A DNA stretch of 64,000 nt from a virus. Both the position numbers and the translations under genes were made by a program. The notes below the pieces were generated by a model. That model did no database searches and had not been told where the DNA came from. It was given only the letters and a program-made list of their open reading frames with translations. The stretch is taken from positions 1 through 64,000 of the IMG/VR virus record IMGVR_UViG_3300036770_008166. The stretch is one strand, 5' to 3'. The first letter of the stretch is position 1. Every line of letters begins with the position of its first letter. Of this stretch, positions 8,179 through 29,804 are shown in pieces.

Positions 8179-9024
8179 ATGAAATTCAAGGTCAGTGAAA
8201 TATTCTATTCCGCACAGGGCGAAGGCCGCTACGTGGGTGTGCCCAGCATCTTTCTACGCATGTTTGGCTGCAACTTTACCTGTTCGGGGTTTGGCTGCCG
8301 GCCGGGCGAGCGCAGTGTCGAAGCAGACGAAGTGGCCAAACGCATCGAGCTGTACAAGACCTTTGAAGAATTGCCTTTGGTAGACACTGGCTGTGACAGT
8401 TATGCATCCTGGCATCCGGCCTTCAAGCACTTGTCCCCCAACTACACTGCCACAGAACTATGCGACCGCATGGCGGAATCGCTGCCGCACGGCAACTGGC
8501 AGCAGCCAAATGGAAACCCGGTACACCTCGTGGTCACGGGTGGAGAGCCTTTGTTGGGTTGGCAGCGTGGCTATCCGGAACTGTTTGATGCTTTGCACCA
8601 ACGTGGCCTGCGACACATCACGTTCGAAACCAATGGCACACAAGAACTGCATCGAGACTTTGCACAGTATCTTGATTCTTGGTTCGGCGAGATCACATTC
8701 TCTGTAAGCCCTAAGCTCAGTGTGAGCGGTGAGGCGTGGGAGGATGCTATCCGACCCGACGTGGTCTGGAACTATGAAACACATGGTGTGACCTATCTCA
8801 AGTTCGTGGTAGAACGCCGGGAAGATTTTGACGAGCTGGATCGTGCCGTAGACGAATATCGCCTGCGTGGATTTGCAGGGCCGGTGTTTGTGATGCCAGT
8901 GGGCGGTGTGGTGCGTGTGTATGACGACAATCGCTTGAACGTGGCCGACGAAGCGTTGCGCCGAGGTTACTGGTACAGCCCAAGACTGCATGTTGACCTT
9001 TGGGGCAATGGTTGGGGCCGATGA
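8179..9024 (+). CDS. queE: 7-carboxy-7-deazaguanine synthase (radical SAM)
   Basis: EIFYSAQGEG, LRMFGCNFTC...GCDS, TGGEPL, ETNGT, SVSPKL and SPRLH. Confidence 0.9.
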   Translation: MKFKVSEIFYSAQGEGRYVGVPSIFLRMFGCNFTCSGFGCRPGERSVEADEVAKRIELYKTFEELPLVDTGCDSYASWHPAFKHLSPNYTATELCDRMAESLPHGNWQQPNGNPVHLVVTGGEPLLGWQRGYPELFDALHQRGLRHITFETNGTQELHRDFAQYLDSWFGEITFSVSPKLSVSGEAWEDAIRPDVVWNYETHGVTYLKFVVERREDFDELDRAVDEYRLRGFAGPVFVMPVGGVVRVYDDNRLNVADEALRRGYWYSPRLHVDLWGNGWGR

Positions 9025-25200: not shown

Positions 25201-25416
25201 ATGCGGATAGAATTCGCACCTGGTGCGTTTGACACATTCGATGGAACTCAAGAGGAACTGGATGCCTTGGTAGCCGAACTTGAACGCATGGCCGAATCCG
25301 GCGAACTGGAAGCGAACTCCGTGGCCTTGGAAGACTGGGACGACCTCGACGACCAAGATCGCGACATCATTGCCGATGCTTTGGAACGTATGCAACCGCC
25401 GCGCAGCCTTAACTAA
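25201..25416 (+). CDS. acidic hypothetical protein
   Basis: IEFAPGAFDTFDGTQEELD. Confidence 0.6.
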   Translation: MRIEFAPGAFDTFDGTQEELDALVAELERMAESGELEANSVALEDWDDLDDQDRDIIADALERMQPPRSLN

Positions 25417-25449
25417 ATTATGATCCATTTACCAACGGTAAATACCAAA

Positions 25450-25696
25450 TTGTTGTAATTCCTTCAATGAGGATGTGTTCAAGACGCGGGTTCGAATCCC
25501 GCCACCTCCACCCAAGTATATCGAAAAGTGTATTTGGGTGGGGGTGCTCCGGCAATCGATTGGGCAAGCAATCAAAGACGGCAACAGGAGAGTCGACTGA
25601 CCTAATCAGCGAAAAACCATAGACGCCAATGACAGTGTCTACGCACGGGCCGCTTGAACCCTGCCGGGGTAGCTATACCTTGTAACCCAAAATAGC
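25450..25696 (+). ncRNA. ssrA: circularly permuted (two-piece) tmRNA, tag (A)ANDSVYARAA
   Basis: T-arm and CACCTCC-A-CC (to 25512) precede GGGGGTG (25540), giving G3-U70. Tag ORF at 25625-25657; 3' pseudoknot. Ends approximate. Confidence 0.85.
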
Positions 25697-25722
25697 GATA
25701 GGCCTTAGGGCCTATCTTTTTT
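25697..25722 (+). terminator. intrinsic terminator
   Basis: GATAGGCC-TTAG-GGCCTATC-TTTTTT. Confidence 0.85.
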
Positions 25723-25725
25723 CCC

Positions 25726-25762
25726 ATTACGATAGTCTATGATGCCCATAGAAAAAAATAAT
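25726..25762 (+). promoter_or_regulatory. OxyR-like operator upstream of ahpCD
   Basis: ATTA-N7-CTAT-N7-ATAG-N7-TAAT, followed by TTGACT-N18-TATAGT. Confidence 0.55.
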
Positions 25763-25865
25763 GAAAAATCAAGAAAAAACATTGACTCTATGATATATAA
25801 TCGTGTATAGTAGAAACACTGAGACAGGGTGTCTCAATCGACGAAATAAAGGAACCCCAAAAAAT

Positions 25866-26426
25866 ATGAAAACCGTAGGCGACAAAATCGAACCATTCAT
25901 CGTGACAGGTGTAAATCCTGGCAGCGACAAGTTTTTTGACATCACCGAACACAGTTTCGCAGGCAAGTGGCGAGTGATCGTGTTTTATCCCAAAGACTTC
26001 ACATTCGTGTGTCCCACGGAGATCGTGGCATACGACCGATTGTTCAAGGACTTTGAGGAGCGTGACGCTGTGTTGCTCACAGGATCGACTGACAACGAGT
26101 TCTGCAAACTGGGCTGGCAGGCTGCGCACAAAGATCTTGCCAAGATCCGTCATGTACAATTTGCCGACACACAGCGTGGCGAACTGAGCCTGGTTGATCA
26201 ATTGGGTGTGTTCTTTGCTCCCGCAGGGGCCGCACTCCGCGCTACTTTCATCGTGGACCCTGAGGGCGTGATCCAGCATGTCACAGTGAACAATCTCAAT
26301 GTTGGCCGCAGTGCCGAAGAAACGCTGCGTGTGCTGGATGCGCTACAGACCGGCGAACTGTGCGAATGCAACCGTCAGGTGGGTGCTGACACACTTGAGA
26401 GTAAAAAACTCAAGAAGGCCACTTGA
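25866..26426 (+). CDS. ahpC: peroxiredoxin
   Basis: FYPKDFTFVCPTEI, RATFIVDPEG and VGRSAEETLR..DALQ. Confidence 0.95.
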   Translation: MKTVGDKIEPFIVTGVNPGSDKFFDITEHSFAGKWRVIVFYPKDFTFVCPTEIVAYDRLFKDFEERDAVLLTGSTDNEFCKLGWQAAHKDLAKIRHVQFADTQRGELSLVDQLGVFFAPAGAALRATFIVDPEGVIQHVTVNNLNVGRSAEETLRVLDALQTGELCECNRQVGADTLESKKLKKAT

Positions 26427-26428
26427 TC

Positions 26429-26941
26429 ATGCAGTGGGTTGATCAACTCAAAGAAGGCCTGCCCGACTACGCCAAGGACACTCGGCTCAACATCGATGCC
26501 GTGGTCAAACGATCAACATTGGTCGCGGAAGAAGCCGAAGCCGTGGCCTTGGCTGCTGTGTTTGCCACAGGCAATACAAAATTGTGGACCTGGATGCAGA
26601 TCCAGATTGCCGATCAACGGGAGGCCGAGGCTGCGATCACTGCCGCATCGTTGATGGCCATGAACAATGTTTGGTATCCCTATGTTGAGATGGCAGATGA
26701 TGCCAATCTCACAGGACTACCGGCACAGTTGAGGATGAACGCTATAGCCACCCACGGTGGCACCACCAAGGCTCGTTTCGAAGCCTATAGTTTGGCCGCT
26801 AGTATCGTAGGCAAATGTCATTTCTGTGTGAAAGCACACTATGAAACGCTGAAGACGGAAGGTTACACAGTGGAGCAACTGAGAGATATTGGTCGGATCG
26901 CGGCTGTGATGACTGCAGTGAGCCGGGTAATGGCTTCCTAA
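26429..26941 (+). CDS. ahpD: alkylhydroperoxidase AhpD
   Basis: LPDYAKD, MAMNNVWY, LRMN and CHFCVKAH. Confidence 0.9.
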   Translation: MQWVDQLKEGLPDYAKDTRLNIDAVVKRSTLVAEEAEAVALAAVFATGNTKLWTWMQIQIADQREAEAAITAASLMAMNNVWYPYVEMADDANLTGLPAQLRMNAIATHGGTTKARFEAYSLAASIVGKCHFCVKAHYETLKTEGYTVEQLRDIGRIAAVMTAVSRVMAS

Positions 26942-26948
26942 TCAGAGG

Positions 26949-26977
26949 TTGACAGGTATAAATAAAACCAGTACAAT
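26949..26977 (+). promoter_or_regulatory. sigma70 promoter with nested T4-late motif
   Basis: TTGACA-N17-TACAAT; TATAAATA at 26957-26964. Confidence 0.75.
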
Positions 26978-26984
26978 TATGACT

Positions 26985-27077
26985 ATGATGAACTTCGCTC
27001 ACCGCAATCAAACAACCACACTGGCACTAGAGTGGCTGTGTGGCTATGACCTGATTGATTGGGAGGGGTCCAGGTAG
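26985..27077 (+). CDS. putative attenuator leader peptide MMNFAHRNQTTTLALEWLCGYDLIDWEGSR
   Basis: Short ORF at the predicted TSS (alternative in-frame ATG 26979). Its 3' end forms the 5' arm of an antiterminator. Confidence 0.65.
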   Translation: MMNFAHRNQTTTLALEWLCGYDLIDWEGSR

Positions 27078-27108
27078 ATCGAATTGTAAACGATTAGAAC
27101 CTACAAGG

Positions 27109-27142
27109 ACCCTGGCATAAACACCCAGGGTTTTTTGTTTTT
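27109..27142 (+). terminator. attenuator terminator overlapping an antiterminator
   Basis: ACCCTGG/CCAGGGT plus TTTTTGTTTTT. The 5' arm is shared with the GGGGTCC(27065-71)/GGACCCT(27107-13) helix. Confidence 0.75.
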
Positions 27143-27264
27143 GGCGCCAGGTAACGAGGACCAGCCAGCGCGGTACAAAAGGGCAAACGGGCGGACAAGA
27201 CCCATGAAAGATCGGCGATCCCGATCCGGTAAGACTCTTGGGCAGGACACGATCCTGTCTATGG

Positions 27265-27293
27265 TTGACCACAAAACTCTTTTCGTGTAGAAT
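27265..27293 (+). promoter_or_regulatory. internal sigma70-type promoter overlapped by an inverted repeat
   Basis: TTGACC-N17-TAGAAT; ACCACAAAAC (27268-77) / GTTTTGTGGT (27296-305). Confidence 0.5.
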
Positions 27294-27304
27294 GTGTTTT
27301 GTGG

Positions 27305-27539
27305 TACCATATTGAAGCGCATTTTGATGCCTATAGGGTCGTGGAATTGATCACCCACGATACGGCAAGAGATGAGTGCGCTTCGATATGGTAAGAGAGG
27401 GGTGGCAAGTAAGTGTTCTCTTATGCACTGAGGGCTGGAATTCCCGAGCCGGCAACACCGGCACCATATCAAAACACATTGGAGATAAGCAGGAACAGAT
27501 CCGGATCTGGTCGCCTCGTCCAGTGTGTTTTGTTATGGT
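27305..27539 (+). repeat. two related long hairpins in the tRNA-array leader
   Basis: TACCATATTGAAGCGCATT/AGTGCGCTTCGATATGGTA and ACCATATCAAAACACATTGGA/TCCAGTGTGTTTTGTTATGGT. Confidence 0.7.
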
Positions 27540-27543
27540 TTCT

Positions 27544-27626
27544 GGATGACGGGCGGCATTGGCGACCGCAGGTGACTGTAAATCACTGCCTTCGGGAACG
27601 GGGTTCGATTCCCTGGTCATCCACCA
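27544..27626 (+). tRNA. tRNA-Tyr(GTA)
   Basis: GGATGAC/GTCATCC, loop CTGTAAA, long variable arm, TTCGA, CCA. Confidence 0.9.
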
Positions 27627-27632
27627 AGTTTT

Positions 27633-27659
27633 GCACAGTTCGGCTATTGGTTAGGACAT
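27633..27659 (+). pseudogene. 5' fragment of a tRNA (Glu-like) truncated before the endonuclease gene
   Basis: GCACAGT-TC-GGCTATTGGTTAGGAC-AT reads as acceptor 5' strand plus D-arm, then an abrupt shift to AT-rich sequence. Confidence 0.5.
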
Positions 27660-27699
27660 GTAAATCATTATTTTTTGACAAGTTCGAATAAATACGATT

Positions 27700-28473
27700 A
27701 TGAACACTTGTCCTAAATGTAATGTAAACCACACAAAGCCTGGAAAATTTTGTTCTCGTTCTTGTGCTAATAGCAGAGGTCCCAGAACTGAAGAATTCAA
27801 ACAGAGCGTAAGTAAAAAATTATTTGGCAGGAAAGGTATCTCGAATGTAAACAAAGGGCTATACCTGGTAGAAAGAATCACCACTAAATGTTTACAATGT
27901 AAAATCGAATTTTTCACAAAGATTACAAAACCAACAAAATATTGTTCGAATGATTGTTGGAGACAACAATCCGGAGGATATAGGCCAGGGTCAGGAAGAA
28001 GTAAATCGGGATACTACAAAGGTATCTATTGCGGTTCTTCATATGAACTTTGTTGGGTGATTTACAACATTGATCACGGAATTAAATTTAAAAGATTCCC
28101 AGGAGTAATAGAAAACGCCGAATTAAAGTATTATCCTGATTTCATTCTCGATGATCGCAAAACCATTGTTGAGATAAAAGGGTTTGAGGATAAGCAGTCG
28201 GTTGATAAAAAAACAAAACTAGCAGAAAGTGTTGGATACATTGTTAATGTCTATCGTAAAGACGACTTGAAATATGCTTTCGATTATGTCAAAAAAGCAT
28301 ACAATACGACAAGGTATCATACATTATATGATCAATACAGTCCGTCGTATCATTACACATGCAATCATTGCTCTACCGAATTCAGTAGAGATAAAAAATT
28401 GAAAACCGATGTAGTTTTTTGTTCTCGGCAATGTGCAGGAAAAGGTCATAGAGGTAAAAAGTTGTCCCTATAG
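27700..28473 (+). mobile_element. free-standing putative homing endonuclease (Zn-ribbon repeats plus PD-(D/E)xK)
   Basis: CPKC..KFCSRSC, CLQC..YCSNDC, SSYEL..YYPDF..VEIKG and CNHC..FCSRQC. Visibly AT-rich; lies inside the tRNA array. Confidence 0.7.
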
Positions 28474-28540
28474 ATTACGCTGGTTAGATCACTTCCCTTT
28501 CAAGGAAGCGGACCGGGATCGTCACCCGGTGGGGACGCCA
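28464..28540 (+). tRNA. tRNA-Glu(TTC)
   Basis: GTCCCTA/TGGGGAC, CTTCC-CTTTCAA-GGAAG, atypical T-loop ATCGTCA, CCA. Confidence 0.85.
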
Positions 28541-28640
28541 TAAAACAAGTCCTAGCGACAGTGCTCAACGGGCGCGCAAGCCGACCGATCTGGCTAGGCC
28601 AAGCGGGACCAGCAACCTCCCGCTTGATGACAATGAGTTT

Positions 28641-28715
28641 GGTCCGTTAGTTAAACGGTTATAATTCTGGCTTGTCACGCCAGGGTCAGGAGTTCGACTC
28701 TCCTACGGACCGCCA
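28641..28715 (+). tRNA. tRNA-Asp(GTC)
   Basis: GGTCCGT/ACGGACC, CTGGC-TTGTCAC-GCCAG, CCA. Confidence 0.9.
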
Positions 28716-28721
28716 GTCCAT

Positions 28722-28797
28722 GTATCGGTAGTGTCAACGGTTAGCACGGCAGCCTCCAAATCTGCTTGTGAGGGTTCGAATCCTTCCCGGTACGCCA
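28722..28797 (+). tRNA. tRNA-Trp(CCA)
   Basis: GTATCGG/CCGGTAC, loop CTCCAAA, TTCGAA, CCA. Confidence 0.9.
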
Positions 28798-28813
28798 AAC
28801 GATCCAATCTTTG

Positions 28814-28888
28814 GCCGGTGTAGCACAGTGGCAATGCGCTCGCCTTGTAAGCGAGATATCGGGAGTTCGATTCTCTCCACCGGCACCA
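28814..28888 (+). tRNA. tRNA-Thr(TGT)
   Basis: GCCGGTG/CACCGGC, CTCGC-CTTGTAA-GCGAG, CCA. Confidence 0.9.
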
Positions 28889-28893
28889 AACAT

Positions 28894-28967
28894 CTCGGCG
28901 TGGCCGATCGTCCAGGCACGGGTCTGCAAAACCCGCTAGGCAGGTTAGACTCCTGCCGCCGAGTCCA
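28894..28967 (+). tRNA. tRNA-Cys(GCA)
   Basis: CTCGGCG/CGCCGAG, CGGGT-CTGCAAA-ACCCG, U73, CCA. Confidence 0.9.
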
Positions 28968-29020
28968 CTTATCAGGCAATGCCCACCGGCCTTGTAAGCC
29001 AGCCTCTTGCCTGACACCCA

Positions 29021-29094
29021 GCGGCGGTAGTATAATGGTATTATGACAGCCTTCCAAGCTGATGACGCGGGTTCGATTCCCGCTCGCCGCTCCA
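29021..29094 (+). tRNA. tRNA-Gly(TCC)
   Basis: GCGGCGG/TCGCCGC, CAGC-CTTCCAA-GCTG, U73, CCA. Confidence 0.9.
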
Positions 29095-29116
29095 CTTATT
29101 TCAAAGGAGATTGATC

Positions 29117-29164
29117 ATGTCTGTAGAAGAATACTGGCAATGGATCCGTGATAATGTACAATGA
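29117..29164 (+). CDS. 15-aa micro-ORF MSVEEYWQWIRDNVQ
   Basis: Strong AAAGGAGA RBS directly after tRNA-Gly. Confidence 0.35.
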   Translation: MSVEEYWQWIRDNVQ

Positions 29165-29195
29165 ACTTAATTCAGGTTAATTACTAAGAAAGGAT

Positions 29196-29804
29196 ATGAC
29201 TATGCCAGCTGTATTTCTAGTATCAGACACACATTTCGGTCACAGCGGTGTCTGTAGATTCACCCGCGACGACGGTACCAAGCTGCGTCCTTGGACCGAT
29301 CCTGACGAGATGGATGAACATCTGGTGCGTGTGTGGAACGAGCGTGTGCGGCCACAGGACAAAGTGTATCACCTTGGAGACGTTGTGATCAATCGTAAAG
29401 CCCTGCGAACTCTGTCTAGGCTCAACGGAGACAAGGTCTTGATTCGCGGTAATCATGACATCTTTCGGGACGATGAGTATCGCGAATACTTCCGTGAACT
29501 GAGAGCTTATCATGTCATGAACGGCATGATACTCAGCCATATTCCTGTGCATGAAGCCAGCCTGGGTCGCTTTGGTGTTAACATCCACGGACACCTGCAC
29601 TATCAGCGCGTGCGGCGTGCCCGTGGGGTCAATTCCCGGACTGGAGAGATCTTATATTCAGATGACATCGATACGCGCTATCATTGTGTGTGCGTGGAAC
29701 AGACTCCGGATTTTGCGCCGATCTTGTTTGAAGATGCGATCCGGAGGATCAAGGCCGAAGGCGGCACAGTGGGATTTCGCAACGGCAATGGTCCGGTGAT
29801 GTAG
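29196..29804 (+). CDS. calcineurin-like metallophosphoesterase
   Basis: SDTHFGH, HLGD, GNHD, LSHIP and HGHLH. Confidence 0.9.
   Translation: MTMPAVFLVSDTHFGHSGVCRFTRDDGTKLRPWTDPDEMDEHLVRVWNERVRPQDKVYHLGDVVINRKALRTLSRLNGDKVLIRGNHDIFRDDEYREYFRELRAYHVMNGMILSHIPVHEASLGRFGVNIHGHLHYQRVRRARGVNSRTGEILYSDDIDTRYHCVCVEQTPDFAPILFEDAIRRIKAEGGTVGFRNGNGPVM

Follow-up and report, generated by a model that had tools for sequence, protein, structure and literature searches.

Why phages carry tRNA genes, and at what point they use them, is debated; codon-usage matching, the replacement of degraded host tRNAs and escape from anticodon nucleases have all been put forward. Leader-peptide attenuation, for its part, is a textbook mechanism of amino-acid operons that also controls a few genes of the translation apparatus. 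The locus described here raises the question of whether the two meet, that is, whether a phage tRNA array may be headed by a switch that reads the position of a ribosome on a short ORF. The window analysed, a 64,000-nt stretch of a 115-kb record (IMGVR_UViG_3300036770_008166), comes from a giant uncultured phage and contains a seven-tRNA array spanning 27544-29094; the record as a whole holds a single further tRNA (Met) and a tmRNA. A preliminary description of this DNA, made from the letters alone, had proposed a leader-peptide attenuator whose codons match the tRNAs Tyr, Glu, Asp, Trp, Thr, Cys and Gly downstream, and all seven of these tRNAs were found. On the evidence set out below, we regard ribosome-mediated (leader-peptide) transcription attenuation, acting ahead of the array, as the likely function of the region.

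The cassette opens with a promoter (P1), continues with a 30-codon ORF and an antiterminator/terminator region, and then reaches a structured RNA (RNA X); a second promoter (P2) stands between RNA X and the tRNA array (Table 1). P1, with its boxes at 26949-54 (TTGACA) and 26972-77 (TACAAT), was the joint-best promoter in a 5-kb scan, and its spacer carries an invariant ATAAATAAA that resembles the T4 late-promoter motif TATAAATA (26957-64), so that the promoter and its nested motif lie where they had been placed. The same is true of the leader ORF with its TAG stop codon. The leader ATG has no Shine-Dalgarno sequence; as it stands only 7 nt past the −10 box, the mRNA is probably leaderless. 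The terminator that had been claimed, CCCTGG/CCAGGG with its T tract at 27110-27142, was recovered by a hairpin search; a consensus terminator scan missed it because loops were limited to 8 nt there. The second promoter-like sequence, flagged earlier as a possible bypass, is likewise present and conserved: the −35 box, the spacing and the −10 box are kept while the spacers vary in relatives L216, L233, L195, L225, L203 and L218. Since P2 is conserved and lies 3′ of the attenuator, the tRNAs can be transcribed without the switch, and the attenuator is not their sole route of expression. Between P2 and tRNA-Tyr there are two long stable hairpins, and related stems adjoin tRNAs in L216, L004, L233, L197 and L225. 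The HNH-like ORF is an insertion in the array and no part of the switch.

Table 1. Features of the cassette and the tRNA array, in positions of the window.
Feature	Positions	Strand	Evidence or remarks
Promoter P1, TTGACA-N17-TACAAT	26949..26977	+	11/12 match; layout kept in relatives
Leader ORF, 30 codons + TAG	26985..27077	+	homologous ORFs in 82 distinct relatives
Antiterminator helix	27065..27113	+	fold energy, covariation, partial-transcript folds
Weak intrinsic terminator	27107..27142	+	6-bp core CCCUGG/CCAGGG, 9-nt loop, T run; hairpin search
RNA X, ~110-nt structured RNA	27147..27258	+	conserved loops, covarying stems
Promoter P2, TTGACC-N17-TAGAAT	27265..27293	+	10/12 match; 3′ of attenuator
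Two long stable hairpins, P2 to tRNA-Tyr	27305..27540 (27305-27395, 27463-27540)	+	−100 kcal/mol, z = −5.9
tRNA-Tyr (GTA)	27544..27626	+	
AT-rich ORF, HNH homing endonuclease-like	27700..28473	+	phrog_1271, E = 2.6e-10
tRNA-Glu (TTC), Asp (GTC), Trp (CCA), Thr (TGT), Cys (GCA), Gly (TCC)	28464..29094	+	

Folding confirmed the antiterminator that had been proposed, and with it the mutual exclusion of the two structures. The helix pairs 27065-71 with 27107-13 and GUAG (27074-77) with CUAC (27101-04). Its 5′ arm (27065-77) takes in the stop codon of the leader together with the four sense codons before it, and its 3′ arm (27101-13) overlaps the 5′ arm of the terminator, 27107-13 being common to both. 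When both hairpins are free to form, the antiterminator is the minimum-energy fold, at −20.4 kcal/mol (z = −3.6; 0/200 shuffles as stable) against −13.5 kcal/mol for the extended stem of the terminator. Folded at full length, the leader of the window does not stand out (z = −1.8). The ORF region is structured, but only two competing hairpins are evident, and neither a pause hairpin nor a 1:2-type helix to keep ribosome and polymerase in step could be made out, which counts against an attenuator.

To what extent this arrangement is shared could not be read from simple similarity. A blastn search of 26400-29200 against GenBank phages returned tRNA-sized matches only and no relative, and the leader gave almost no blastn matches in the first 160 related loci because it diverges fast; its homologues were obtained only through pattern scans and profile searches. 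The first 30 modules were collected with a promoter pattern and nhmmer, and a further 82 distinct modules by anchoring on RNA X, a step in which leader composition played no part. A palindromic pattern was also tried and dropped, as it returned mostly unrelated hairpins. Many related phages have the promoter-ORF-antiterminator-terminator unit at the 5′ end of their tRNA arrays, and the comparative search identified the cassette of the window as one copy of a unit kept across freshwater jumbo phages. The modules of both sets all lie upstream of the tRNA arrays and on the same strand, and the genes upstream of them differ. A terminator was found in 29 of the first 30 modules, always with its stem 24-33 nt from the stop codon, the exception being L225, whose T run is interrupted. 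In an automated census of RNA X sites, 32 of the 117 usable ones were without terminator or without ORF according to a simple detector.

Conservation of the leader, on which the preliminary description had let its reading depend, was borne out: the ORF is kept open in all 82 distinct relatives and measures 27-62 codons, although indels have occurred and the sequence has diverged strongly, and the other frames over the same region contain 1-8 stops. Covariation of the helices had likewise been named as a check, and for the antiterminator compensatory changes are present. Among 21 relatives, 95.6% of the cells are paired and both sides have changed in 5 of the 11 pairs; at most 1/500 shuffles were as good, and slid controls were paired at 22-54%. 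In folds of truncated transcripts, the 5′ arm of the terminator and the end of the ORF are base-paired in 29/30 modules and, in the RNA X-anchored set, in 57/82 as compared with 36% of shuffled controls; the truncated native folds exceed shuffled ones in stability by a mean of 10.3 kcal/mol.

These results bear on the idea that the unit is simply a self-contained micro-gene, or a small RNA, that brings its own terminator and acts in trans, while the tRNAs are transcribed from P2 and other promoters; adjacency to the array would then reflect gene order, not control. From P1 to the terminator the unit is indeed compact (~155 nt), P2 is conserved behind the terminator, and there is a precedent in Sinorhizobium, where attenuator-derived RNAs and leader peptides are reported to have trans functions (PMC6614838, PMC7298713). 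A plain micro-gene, however, would not be expected to have a peptide whose sequence is poorly conserved between subfamilies while its composition is conserved, nor a covarying helix that includes its stop codon and competes with the terminator. We therefore consider this explanation improbable.

If the unit is an attenuator, the composition of the leader should tell what it senses. The window's leader uses 17 kinds of amino acid, Lys, Pro and Val being absent. The codon counts of the preliminary description all proved correct: the seven isotypes of the array are absent from codons 1-9 and occupy 13 of codons 10-30, all seven are represented within codons 10-22, and ACC and GGC are the two codons that the phage anticodons cannot read. 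The claim that the leader matches the seven tRNAs holds with a qualification. All seven anticodons are sampled, as against 4.1 ± 1.2 in random 30-codon gene segments (P = 0.017 for 7/7), and for its own seven isotypes this leader ranks first among 21 cluster representatives and second among all 82 leaders. On the other side, ten further amino acids have no tRNA in the array, so the leader is not written solely in the seven isotypes, and taken alone its enrichment for them is modest (13/29 against 0.32 expected, P = 0.10). The strong evidence for a composition match comes from the relatives, not from the window alone.

All 20 amino acids are present in 53 of the 82 leaders and 19 in another 16. 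When the leaders were grouped by BLOSUM62 alignment at 50% identity into 38 clusters, 18 clusters had an all-20 leader, compared with 1.34 expected by chance; the same completeness was seen in 0.8% of 42-mers from real proteins and in 9/851 short ORFs of the same loci. The array anticodons are sampled by their own leader in 16/16, 15/15 and 21/22 cases in relatives. With one representative per cluster, the fractions of each leader devoted to its own tRNA block summed to 9.52, against 8.25 ± 0.29 after permutation (0/20,000); co-variation between leader and array, which had been suggested as a check, thus extends beyond permuted controls. Amino acids missing from a leader are rarely among the tRNA isotypes of its block (odds ratio 6.1, p = 9e-8, uncorrected for phylogeny). 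Strict one-to-one matching was considered and rejected, since the leader of L216 is without Val, yet a Val tRNA is present on the same contig. Judging from these sequences, the usual design of the family is an all-20 leader, of which the window's leader is a shortened version. Overall, the core of the earlier reading, an attenuator tuned to many tRNAs, is supported by the recurrence of the unit, the open ORF, the covariation and the tracking of composition.

What computation shows are the elements of the cassette and how far they are conserved, the covariation of the helix and the statistics of leader composition; translation of the leader, the control of termination by ribosome position and the cause of a shortage are inferences. 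The mRNA from P1 would start at or beside the leader ATG and would adopt one of two mutually exclusive folds, either the antiterminator, built from the end of the ORF and the 5′ half of the terminator, or the terminator itself. In an untranslated RNA, or with a ribosome stalled anywhere from codon 2 to about codon 22, the antiterminator, as the more stable fold, would form and polymerase would continue past RNA X and P2 to transcribe the tRNA genes. A ribosome at the stop codon would instead cover the 5′ arm of the antiterminator, and the terminator would form and end transcription at 27131-42. Among public sequencing runs, none of RNA is listed for this DNA. Since the leaders sample nearly all amino acids, and the reduced ones the isotypes of the array they head, the switch would work as an OR gate that senses how well many charged tRNAs are supplied, and would also feed back negatively on tRNA production by the phage itself, while P2 would supply a baseline independent of the attenuator. 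Because leaders usually spell all 20 amino acids, the phage probably makes more tRNAs when ribosomes are short of any amino acid. One point against this is that most amino acids are represented by a single codon, which would make the switch less sensitive than classical attenuators with their runs of codons.

The same completeness could also mean that the leader is a general sensor of translation status, the all-20 peptide serving as an average test message and the response not being specific to particular tRNAs. Host shut-off, a shortage of ribosomes, ribosome-targeting antibiotics, or indeed any slowing or lack of initiation would then be triggers. Such a reading finds a footing in the fold, because the antiterminator is the default of the untranslated RNA and any loss of translation would switch the genes on, as well as in the single occurrence of most amino acids; moreover, phages with full arrays and all-20 leaders offer no isotype resolution. 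What makes us think it unlikely, albeit the most serious of the alternatives, is that reduced leaders follow the isotypes of their own block, that the leaders of second blocks (L049 and L235b) are without the amino acids served by the first blocks, and that an average message has no need of the full set of 20 far above chance.

RNA X, which lies between the terminator and the tRNAs and was absent from the preliminary description, deserves attention of its own. The AACGAGG loop of its hairpin is invariant, as is AAACGGGCGG, and additional stems covary. Its distance past the leader stop is ~72-91 nt or ~250-294 nt, and once 470 nt. Neither RNA X nor the leader was matched in Rfam, at gathering or at permissive thresholds (E up to 10), over 26800-29200 and 27138-27300. 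The RNA X pattern gave 116 viral matches, 90 of which were confirmed by the RNA X profile; in cellular genomes, where the pattern gave at least 120 matches, none of those listed passed the profile, and these are chance matches. A conserved ATGAA in RNA X was considered as an ORF start and discarded, as 1-nt indels shift the frame among relatives and the stems covary. In relatives, a small ORF of 52-59 residues that has a Shine-Dalgarno sequence lies just behind the terminator, ahead of RNA X; roughly half of the first 30 modules have it, as do most of a set of 85. Its product had no Pfam or PHROG family match.

Lying directly behind the terminator, RNA X may be the real target of the switch or an additional one. 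In its strongest form, this alternative holds that the switch mainly controls RNA X, together with the small protein in most relatives, and not the tRNAs; RNA X might, for instance, alter polymerase so that it transcribes the untranslated array processively, or it might have a role in trans. Consistent with it, RNA X follows the leader in 28/30 modules, upstream of P2, its loops are invariant and its stems covary, and the small ORF sits in many modules between it and the terminator. But RNA X has no family match, and the composition of the leader tracks tRNA content, which indicates the tRNAs as the regulated output. As a replacement for control of the tRNAs we judge this alternative very improbable; as an extra layer it is compatible with the attenuator.

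We found no published description of such a tRNA-array switch in the literature. Among the closest architectures is that of the enterobacterial amino-acid operons (trp, his, leu, phe), including multivalent ones such as ilvGMEDA, whose leader senses Ile, Leu and Val, and thr, whose leader senses Thr and Ile. In both, a short ORF near the promoter is followed by an intrinsic terminator and by an antiterminator that excludes it depending on ribosome position, and the leader is written in the amino acids sensed, several at once. There, however, the regulated genes encode biosynthetic enzymes, whereas here they are tRNA genes in a phage; the leaders there contain runs of one to three kinds of amino acid, here up to all 20, mostly once each; and here the mRNA is probably leaderless, with just the two competing hairpins. 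None of the Rfam leader families matched the leader of the window. The pheM-pheST operon of Escherichia coli, in which leader-peptide attenuation senses one amino acid and controls phenylalanyl-tRNA synthetase, is alike in that a gene of the translation apparatus is attenuated and its output relieves the shortage sensed, but it governs a synthetase for one amino acid and not tRNA genes. T-box riboswitches share the sensing of tRNA charging and the choice between terminator and antiterminator upstream of translation-related genes. They bind uncharged tRNA directly, without ribosome or ORF, whereas an ORF and a ribosome would be used here, and no Rfam T-box match was obtained in 26800-29200 or 27138-27300 with E up to 10. 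In Anabaena sp. PCC 7120, the trn operon is a long tRNA array that is normally silent and is induced when translation is impaired (PMC8421152); it is an accessory array responding to impaired translation, as would be the case here, but a cellular one, and the words leader, attenuator and terminator are absent from that paper. The Anabaena array is of the repressor-controlled type (TrcR); on reading through the sequence of the window, repeats of the kind expected for such control were not noticed at P1 or P2. Finally, in antibiotic-responsive attenuators such as the mef/mel, vmlR and msrD leaders, a ribosome that stalls within the short leader ORF is reported to lift termination further downstream (PMC4335068, PMC9226507, PMC10314930). 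General translation stress switches genes on in these systems, as it would here, but they rely on drug-specific stalling at defined nascent-peptide motifs and govern resistance genes, whereas conservation here is of composition and not of a stalling motif.

Tentatively, we would extend this to the whole cassette, which could be a translation-takeover cassette of jumbo phages, in which a pangram-leader OR gate, co-evolving with its tRNA block where arrays are split or reduced, and coupled to RNA X as a phage-specific structured RNA not described before and usually to a small protein, governs how far polymerase reaches into the untranslated array. Independently of this, RNA X may represent a new family of structured RNAs. 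At ~190 nt, the cassette is compact enough to be tested in a cell-free system, without culturing the phage. If this extended reading is true, these would be the first tRNA genes shown to be under leader-peptide attenuation, accompanied by a new RNA family. The switch would also be a natural sensor for the shortage of any amino acid or tRNA. These phages would then express their tRNAs on demand, reading the pool of charged tRNAs by means of a test message.

The preliminary description had read the region ahead of the tRNA array as a leader-peptide attenuator, and all the elements that it listed were found in place (Table). The promoter P1 matches the sigma-70 consensus at 11 of 12 positions, and the 30-codon leader ORF starts 7 nt past the -10 box; its ATG is not preceded by a Shine-Dalgarno sequence. 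The terminator, in which a 6-bp GC core closes a 9-nt loop and precedes a T run, has a fold of -13.5 kcal/mol and was missed by a consensus scan only because of the size of its loop. The antiterminator (-20.4 kcal/mol, z = -3.6) is the minimum-energy fold where both hairpins are possible. The codon counts were also correct: the seven isotypes of the array all occur within codons 10-22, and the phage anticodons read 11 of the 13 matching codons. As detailed below, conservation, covariation and composition statistics support the core of the attenuator reading. Within the P1 spacer, the window and its relatives share an invariant ATAAATAAA that contains TATAAATA, which we take to be the T4 late-promoter motif; ATAAATAAA may constitute a second, phage-specific promoter overlapping P1.

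Features of the cassette, its surroundings and related loci (window coordinates unless a locus is named)
Feature	Position	Remarks
Permuted tmRNA and AhpC/AhpD-like peroxiredoxin pair	25395-25748, 25803-26941	just 5′ of the cassette; tmRNA of betaproteobacterial type (171 bits)
Promoter P1	26949-26977	
Invariant segment of P1 spacer	26957-26964	
Leader ORF	26985-27077	ATG 26985; TAG 27075-77
Antiterminator	27065-77 with 27101-13	
Terminator	27107-27142	
RNA X	27147-27258	~110 nt; structured RNA directly 3′ of the terminator, before the tRNA array
Promoter P2	27265-27293	TTGACC-N17-TAGAAT; 3′ of RNA X
Long hairpins	27305-27395, 27463-27540	
tRNA-Tyr	27544-27626	
HNH-homing-endonuclease-like ORF	27700-28473	AT-rich; between tRNA-Tyr and tRNA-Glu; phrog_1271, E = 2.6e-10
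tRNA-Tyr-like sequence	L004:6240-6325	GTA anticodon
Second-block leader	L049:8733-8855	
Small-protein ORFs (examples)	L203:9287-9442 (-), L228:3300-3476 (+), L232:11882-12055 (+), L227:705-875 (+)	

The source record is 115 kb long, the window being its first 64 kb, yet it is only 33% complete according to CheckV and thus derives from a jumbo phage. The leader diverges too fast for its homologues to be detected by blastn. The neighbouring AhpD and phosphoesterase genes place the phage in a very large family of freshwater jumbo phages, mosaic in make-up and with tRNA arrays that vary greatly. Scanning for patterns in the stop region and across the P1-ATG junction, and then searching with an nhmmer profile, yielded 30 distinct modules, that is, units of promoter, ORF, antiterminator and terminator. 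Whenever the contig was long enough, the module was located at the 5′ head of a same-strand tRNA array; the gene 5′ of it varies (AhpD, a 503-residue ORF, tRNA-Met, tmRNA and others). A further census was anchored on RNA X so as to be independent of the leader. Scanning for a pattern of this RNA gave at least 120 viral stretches, in which modules were detected by geometry only: a terminator had to lie 5′ of RNA X, and 20-40 nt had to separate its stem from the stop of a preceding ORF. Among the matches listed, the census comprised 85 modules with 82 distinct leaders; this simple detector, which keeps the longest candidate ORF and so carries a mild bias, found no terminator or no ORF at 32 of the 117 usable anchors listed. 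The leader ORF is open in all modules despite indels (30-53 codons in the first 30, 27-62 in the larger set), and the remaining five frames mostly contain 1-8 stops. Peptides are strongly divergent between subfamilies, with 12 clusters at 50% identity in the first set and 38 in the larger one. The closest relative of the window leader, that of locus L004, shares its ATGATG start and TAG position and has 13 extra in-frame codons.

Terminators are uniformly weak across modules (6-7 bp core, 9-nt loop, -8 to -18 kcal/mol) and lie 24-33 nt past the leader stop in the first module set. Each module was also folded as an RNA ending at the terminator loop and so still lacking the 3′ arm; in 29 of 30 such folds, the terminator 5′ arm was base-paired to the last part of the ORF. 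This helix comes in two classes, its 5′ arm covering the stop codon (-10 to +1/+4) in one and extending from -23 to -10 in the other. Covariation had been proposed as a mark of both helices: it was found in the antiterminator and not in the terminator stem, because the latter hardly varies. Across an alignment of 21 class-one modules, 95.6% of the cells are paired, and 5 of the 11 pairs vary at both positions, as exemplified by 27070/27108, which is C-G in the window (GGGUCC/GGACCC) and U-A in the related locus L227 (GGGUCUG/CAGACCC). At most 1 of 500 shuffles performed equally well, and slid controls were 22-54% paired. In the larger set, among the matches listed, the pairing in folds of this kind, strictly defined, occurred in 57 of 82 modules compared with 36% of shuffled controls; native folds exceeded shuffled ones in stability by 10.3 kcal/mol on average and had the lower energy in 81 of 82.

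Although the peptide sequences diverge, leader composition is conserved. The norm of the family is a leader containing all 20 amino acids, which corrects the earlier view centred on seven isotypes. All 20 were present in 20 of the first 30 leaders, and 19 in another 7; the corresponding figures in the census, among the matches listed, were 53 and 16 of 85 modules. By chance, this would be expected in 0.9-2.6% of random peptides of 38-43 residues with the composition of the phage family, and it occurred in 0.8% of 42-mers from real proteins and in 9 of 851 short ATG ORFs from the same loci. Clusters at 50% identity with at least one such member numbered 18 of 38 among the census matches listed, against 1.34 expected.

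The proposal that the leader codons match the seven-tRNA array was borne out in part. The match is real, since the window leader samples 7 of 7 array anticodons compared with 4.1 ± 1.2 in gene segments (P = 0.017) and, among the census matches listed, ranks 2nd of 82 leaders for its own seven-isotype set (z = 2.85). However, it is only partial: the leader also contains ten amino acids for which the array has no tRNA, and its raw enrichment for the seven isotypes is 13/29 versus 0.32 expected (P = 0.10). Other leaders sampled 16/16, 15/15, 21/22 and 23/27 array anticodons, far above gene-segment controls. For large arrays headed by leaders with all 20 amino acids the comparison is powerless. 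In incomplete leaders, the absent amino acids are rarely among the isotypes of the block, the array headed by one module (odds ratio 6.1, p = 9e-8, uncorrected for relatedness and with many blocks cut by contig ends). Leader content did follow array content beyond shuffled controls, as the preliminary description had suggested examining. In a permutation test to which each cluster contributed a single representative (21 blocks, ≥4 tRNAs, ≤14 isotypes, among the matches listed), own-block fractions summed to 9.52 versus 8.25 ± 0.29 (0/20,000 permutations), with the window leader ranking 1st of the 21. Contig L235 carries two modules, at 8360 and 12457 (oriented coordinates), and the leader of the second lacks Cys, Glu, His and Tyr, four first-block isotypes. 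A similar second-block leader in L049 lacks Cys, Asp, Glu, Val and Tyr and heads a block of Lys, Lys, Ser, Arg, Trp, Pro, Gln and Ser. Both leaders lack amino acids served by the first blocks and have the top scores for the Lys/Ser/Arg/Trp/Pro/Gln set. The match is not strict, as the L216 leader lacks Val, yet a Val tRNA is present on that contig.

To the elements first described we add RNA X, which is part of the cassette. It contains a hairpin with a covarying stem and a loop, AACGAGG, that never varies, together with a variable hairpin, an invariant AAACGGGCGG and additional covarying stems. By nhmmer, 28 of the first 30 modules have it, and the loci contain it almost nowhere else; among the matches listed, pattern matches were confirmed as RNA X in 90 of 116 viral and 0 of 120 cellular loci. 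An Rfam search gave no match, and RNA X is a candidate for a new, conserved and phage-specific RNA family. In roughly half of the initial 30 modules, and in most of the 85 among the matches listed, the stretch separating the terminator from RNA X encodes a small protein of 52-59 residues with a Shine-Dalgarno sequence; this protein is absent from the window and gave no Pfam or PHROG match. Its ORF starts at most ~45 nt past the terminator stem, mostly 10-25 nt, and the protein may be the first product of read-through. As for P2, a bypass of which the preliminary description had warned, at least six relatives retain its -35 box, spacing and -10 box but differ in spacer sequence, which argues that it is a real promoter that can probably drive the tRNAs independently of the attenuator.

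The local gene order is tRNA-Met, permuted tmRNA, ahpC and ahpD homologues, leader region, seven tRNAs and metallophosphoesterase, and no further tRNAs were found in the whole 115-kb record. In L227, a tmRNA lies immediately 5′ of the module. The tRNA-Tyr of the window was called by ARAGORN and fell below threshold with the Rfam tRNA model; the tRNA-Tyr-like sequence of L004 was called by neither. The 3′-terminal 10 nt of the HNH-endonuclease-like ORF also form the start of tRNA-Glu. The two long hairpins are very stable (joint z = -5.9) and have related stem sequences, and similar stems adjoin tRNAs in five related loci (L216, L004, L233, L197 and L225); the hairpins may serve for processing or protection.

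Full-text searches of the literature gave no paper that connects tRNA arrays of phages to leader peptides or attenuation. Functionally, the closest parallel is the trn array of Anabaena, a tRNA array induced by translational stress; its control differs, resting on promoter repeats and the repressor TrcR, and neither leader nor attenuator is mentioned in its paper (PMC8421152).

We infer that the switch is controlled by the ribosome. On leader RNA that is free, or with a ribosome stalled upstream, the antiterminator would form and polymerase would read through, whereas a ribosome at the stop would cover 27065-77, so that the terminator forms and transcription ends. Given the usual ribosome footprint, A-site codons up to ~22 would leave the 5′ arm of the antiterminator free, and stalls within the last ~7 codons would be invisible to the switch. 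The switch would therefore be on by default and off with efficient translation. Any link to anticodon nucleases is conjecture; the switch itself would place the tRNA output of the phage under feedback control.
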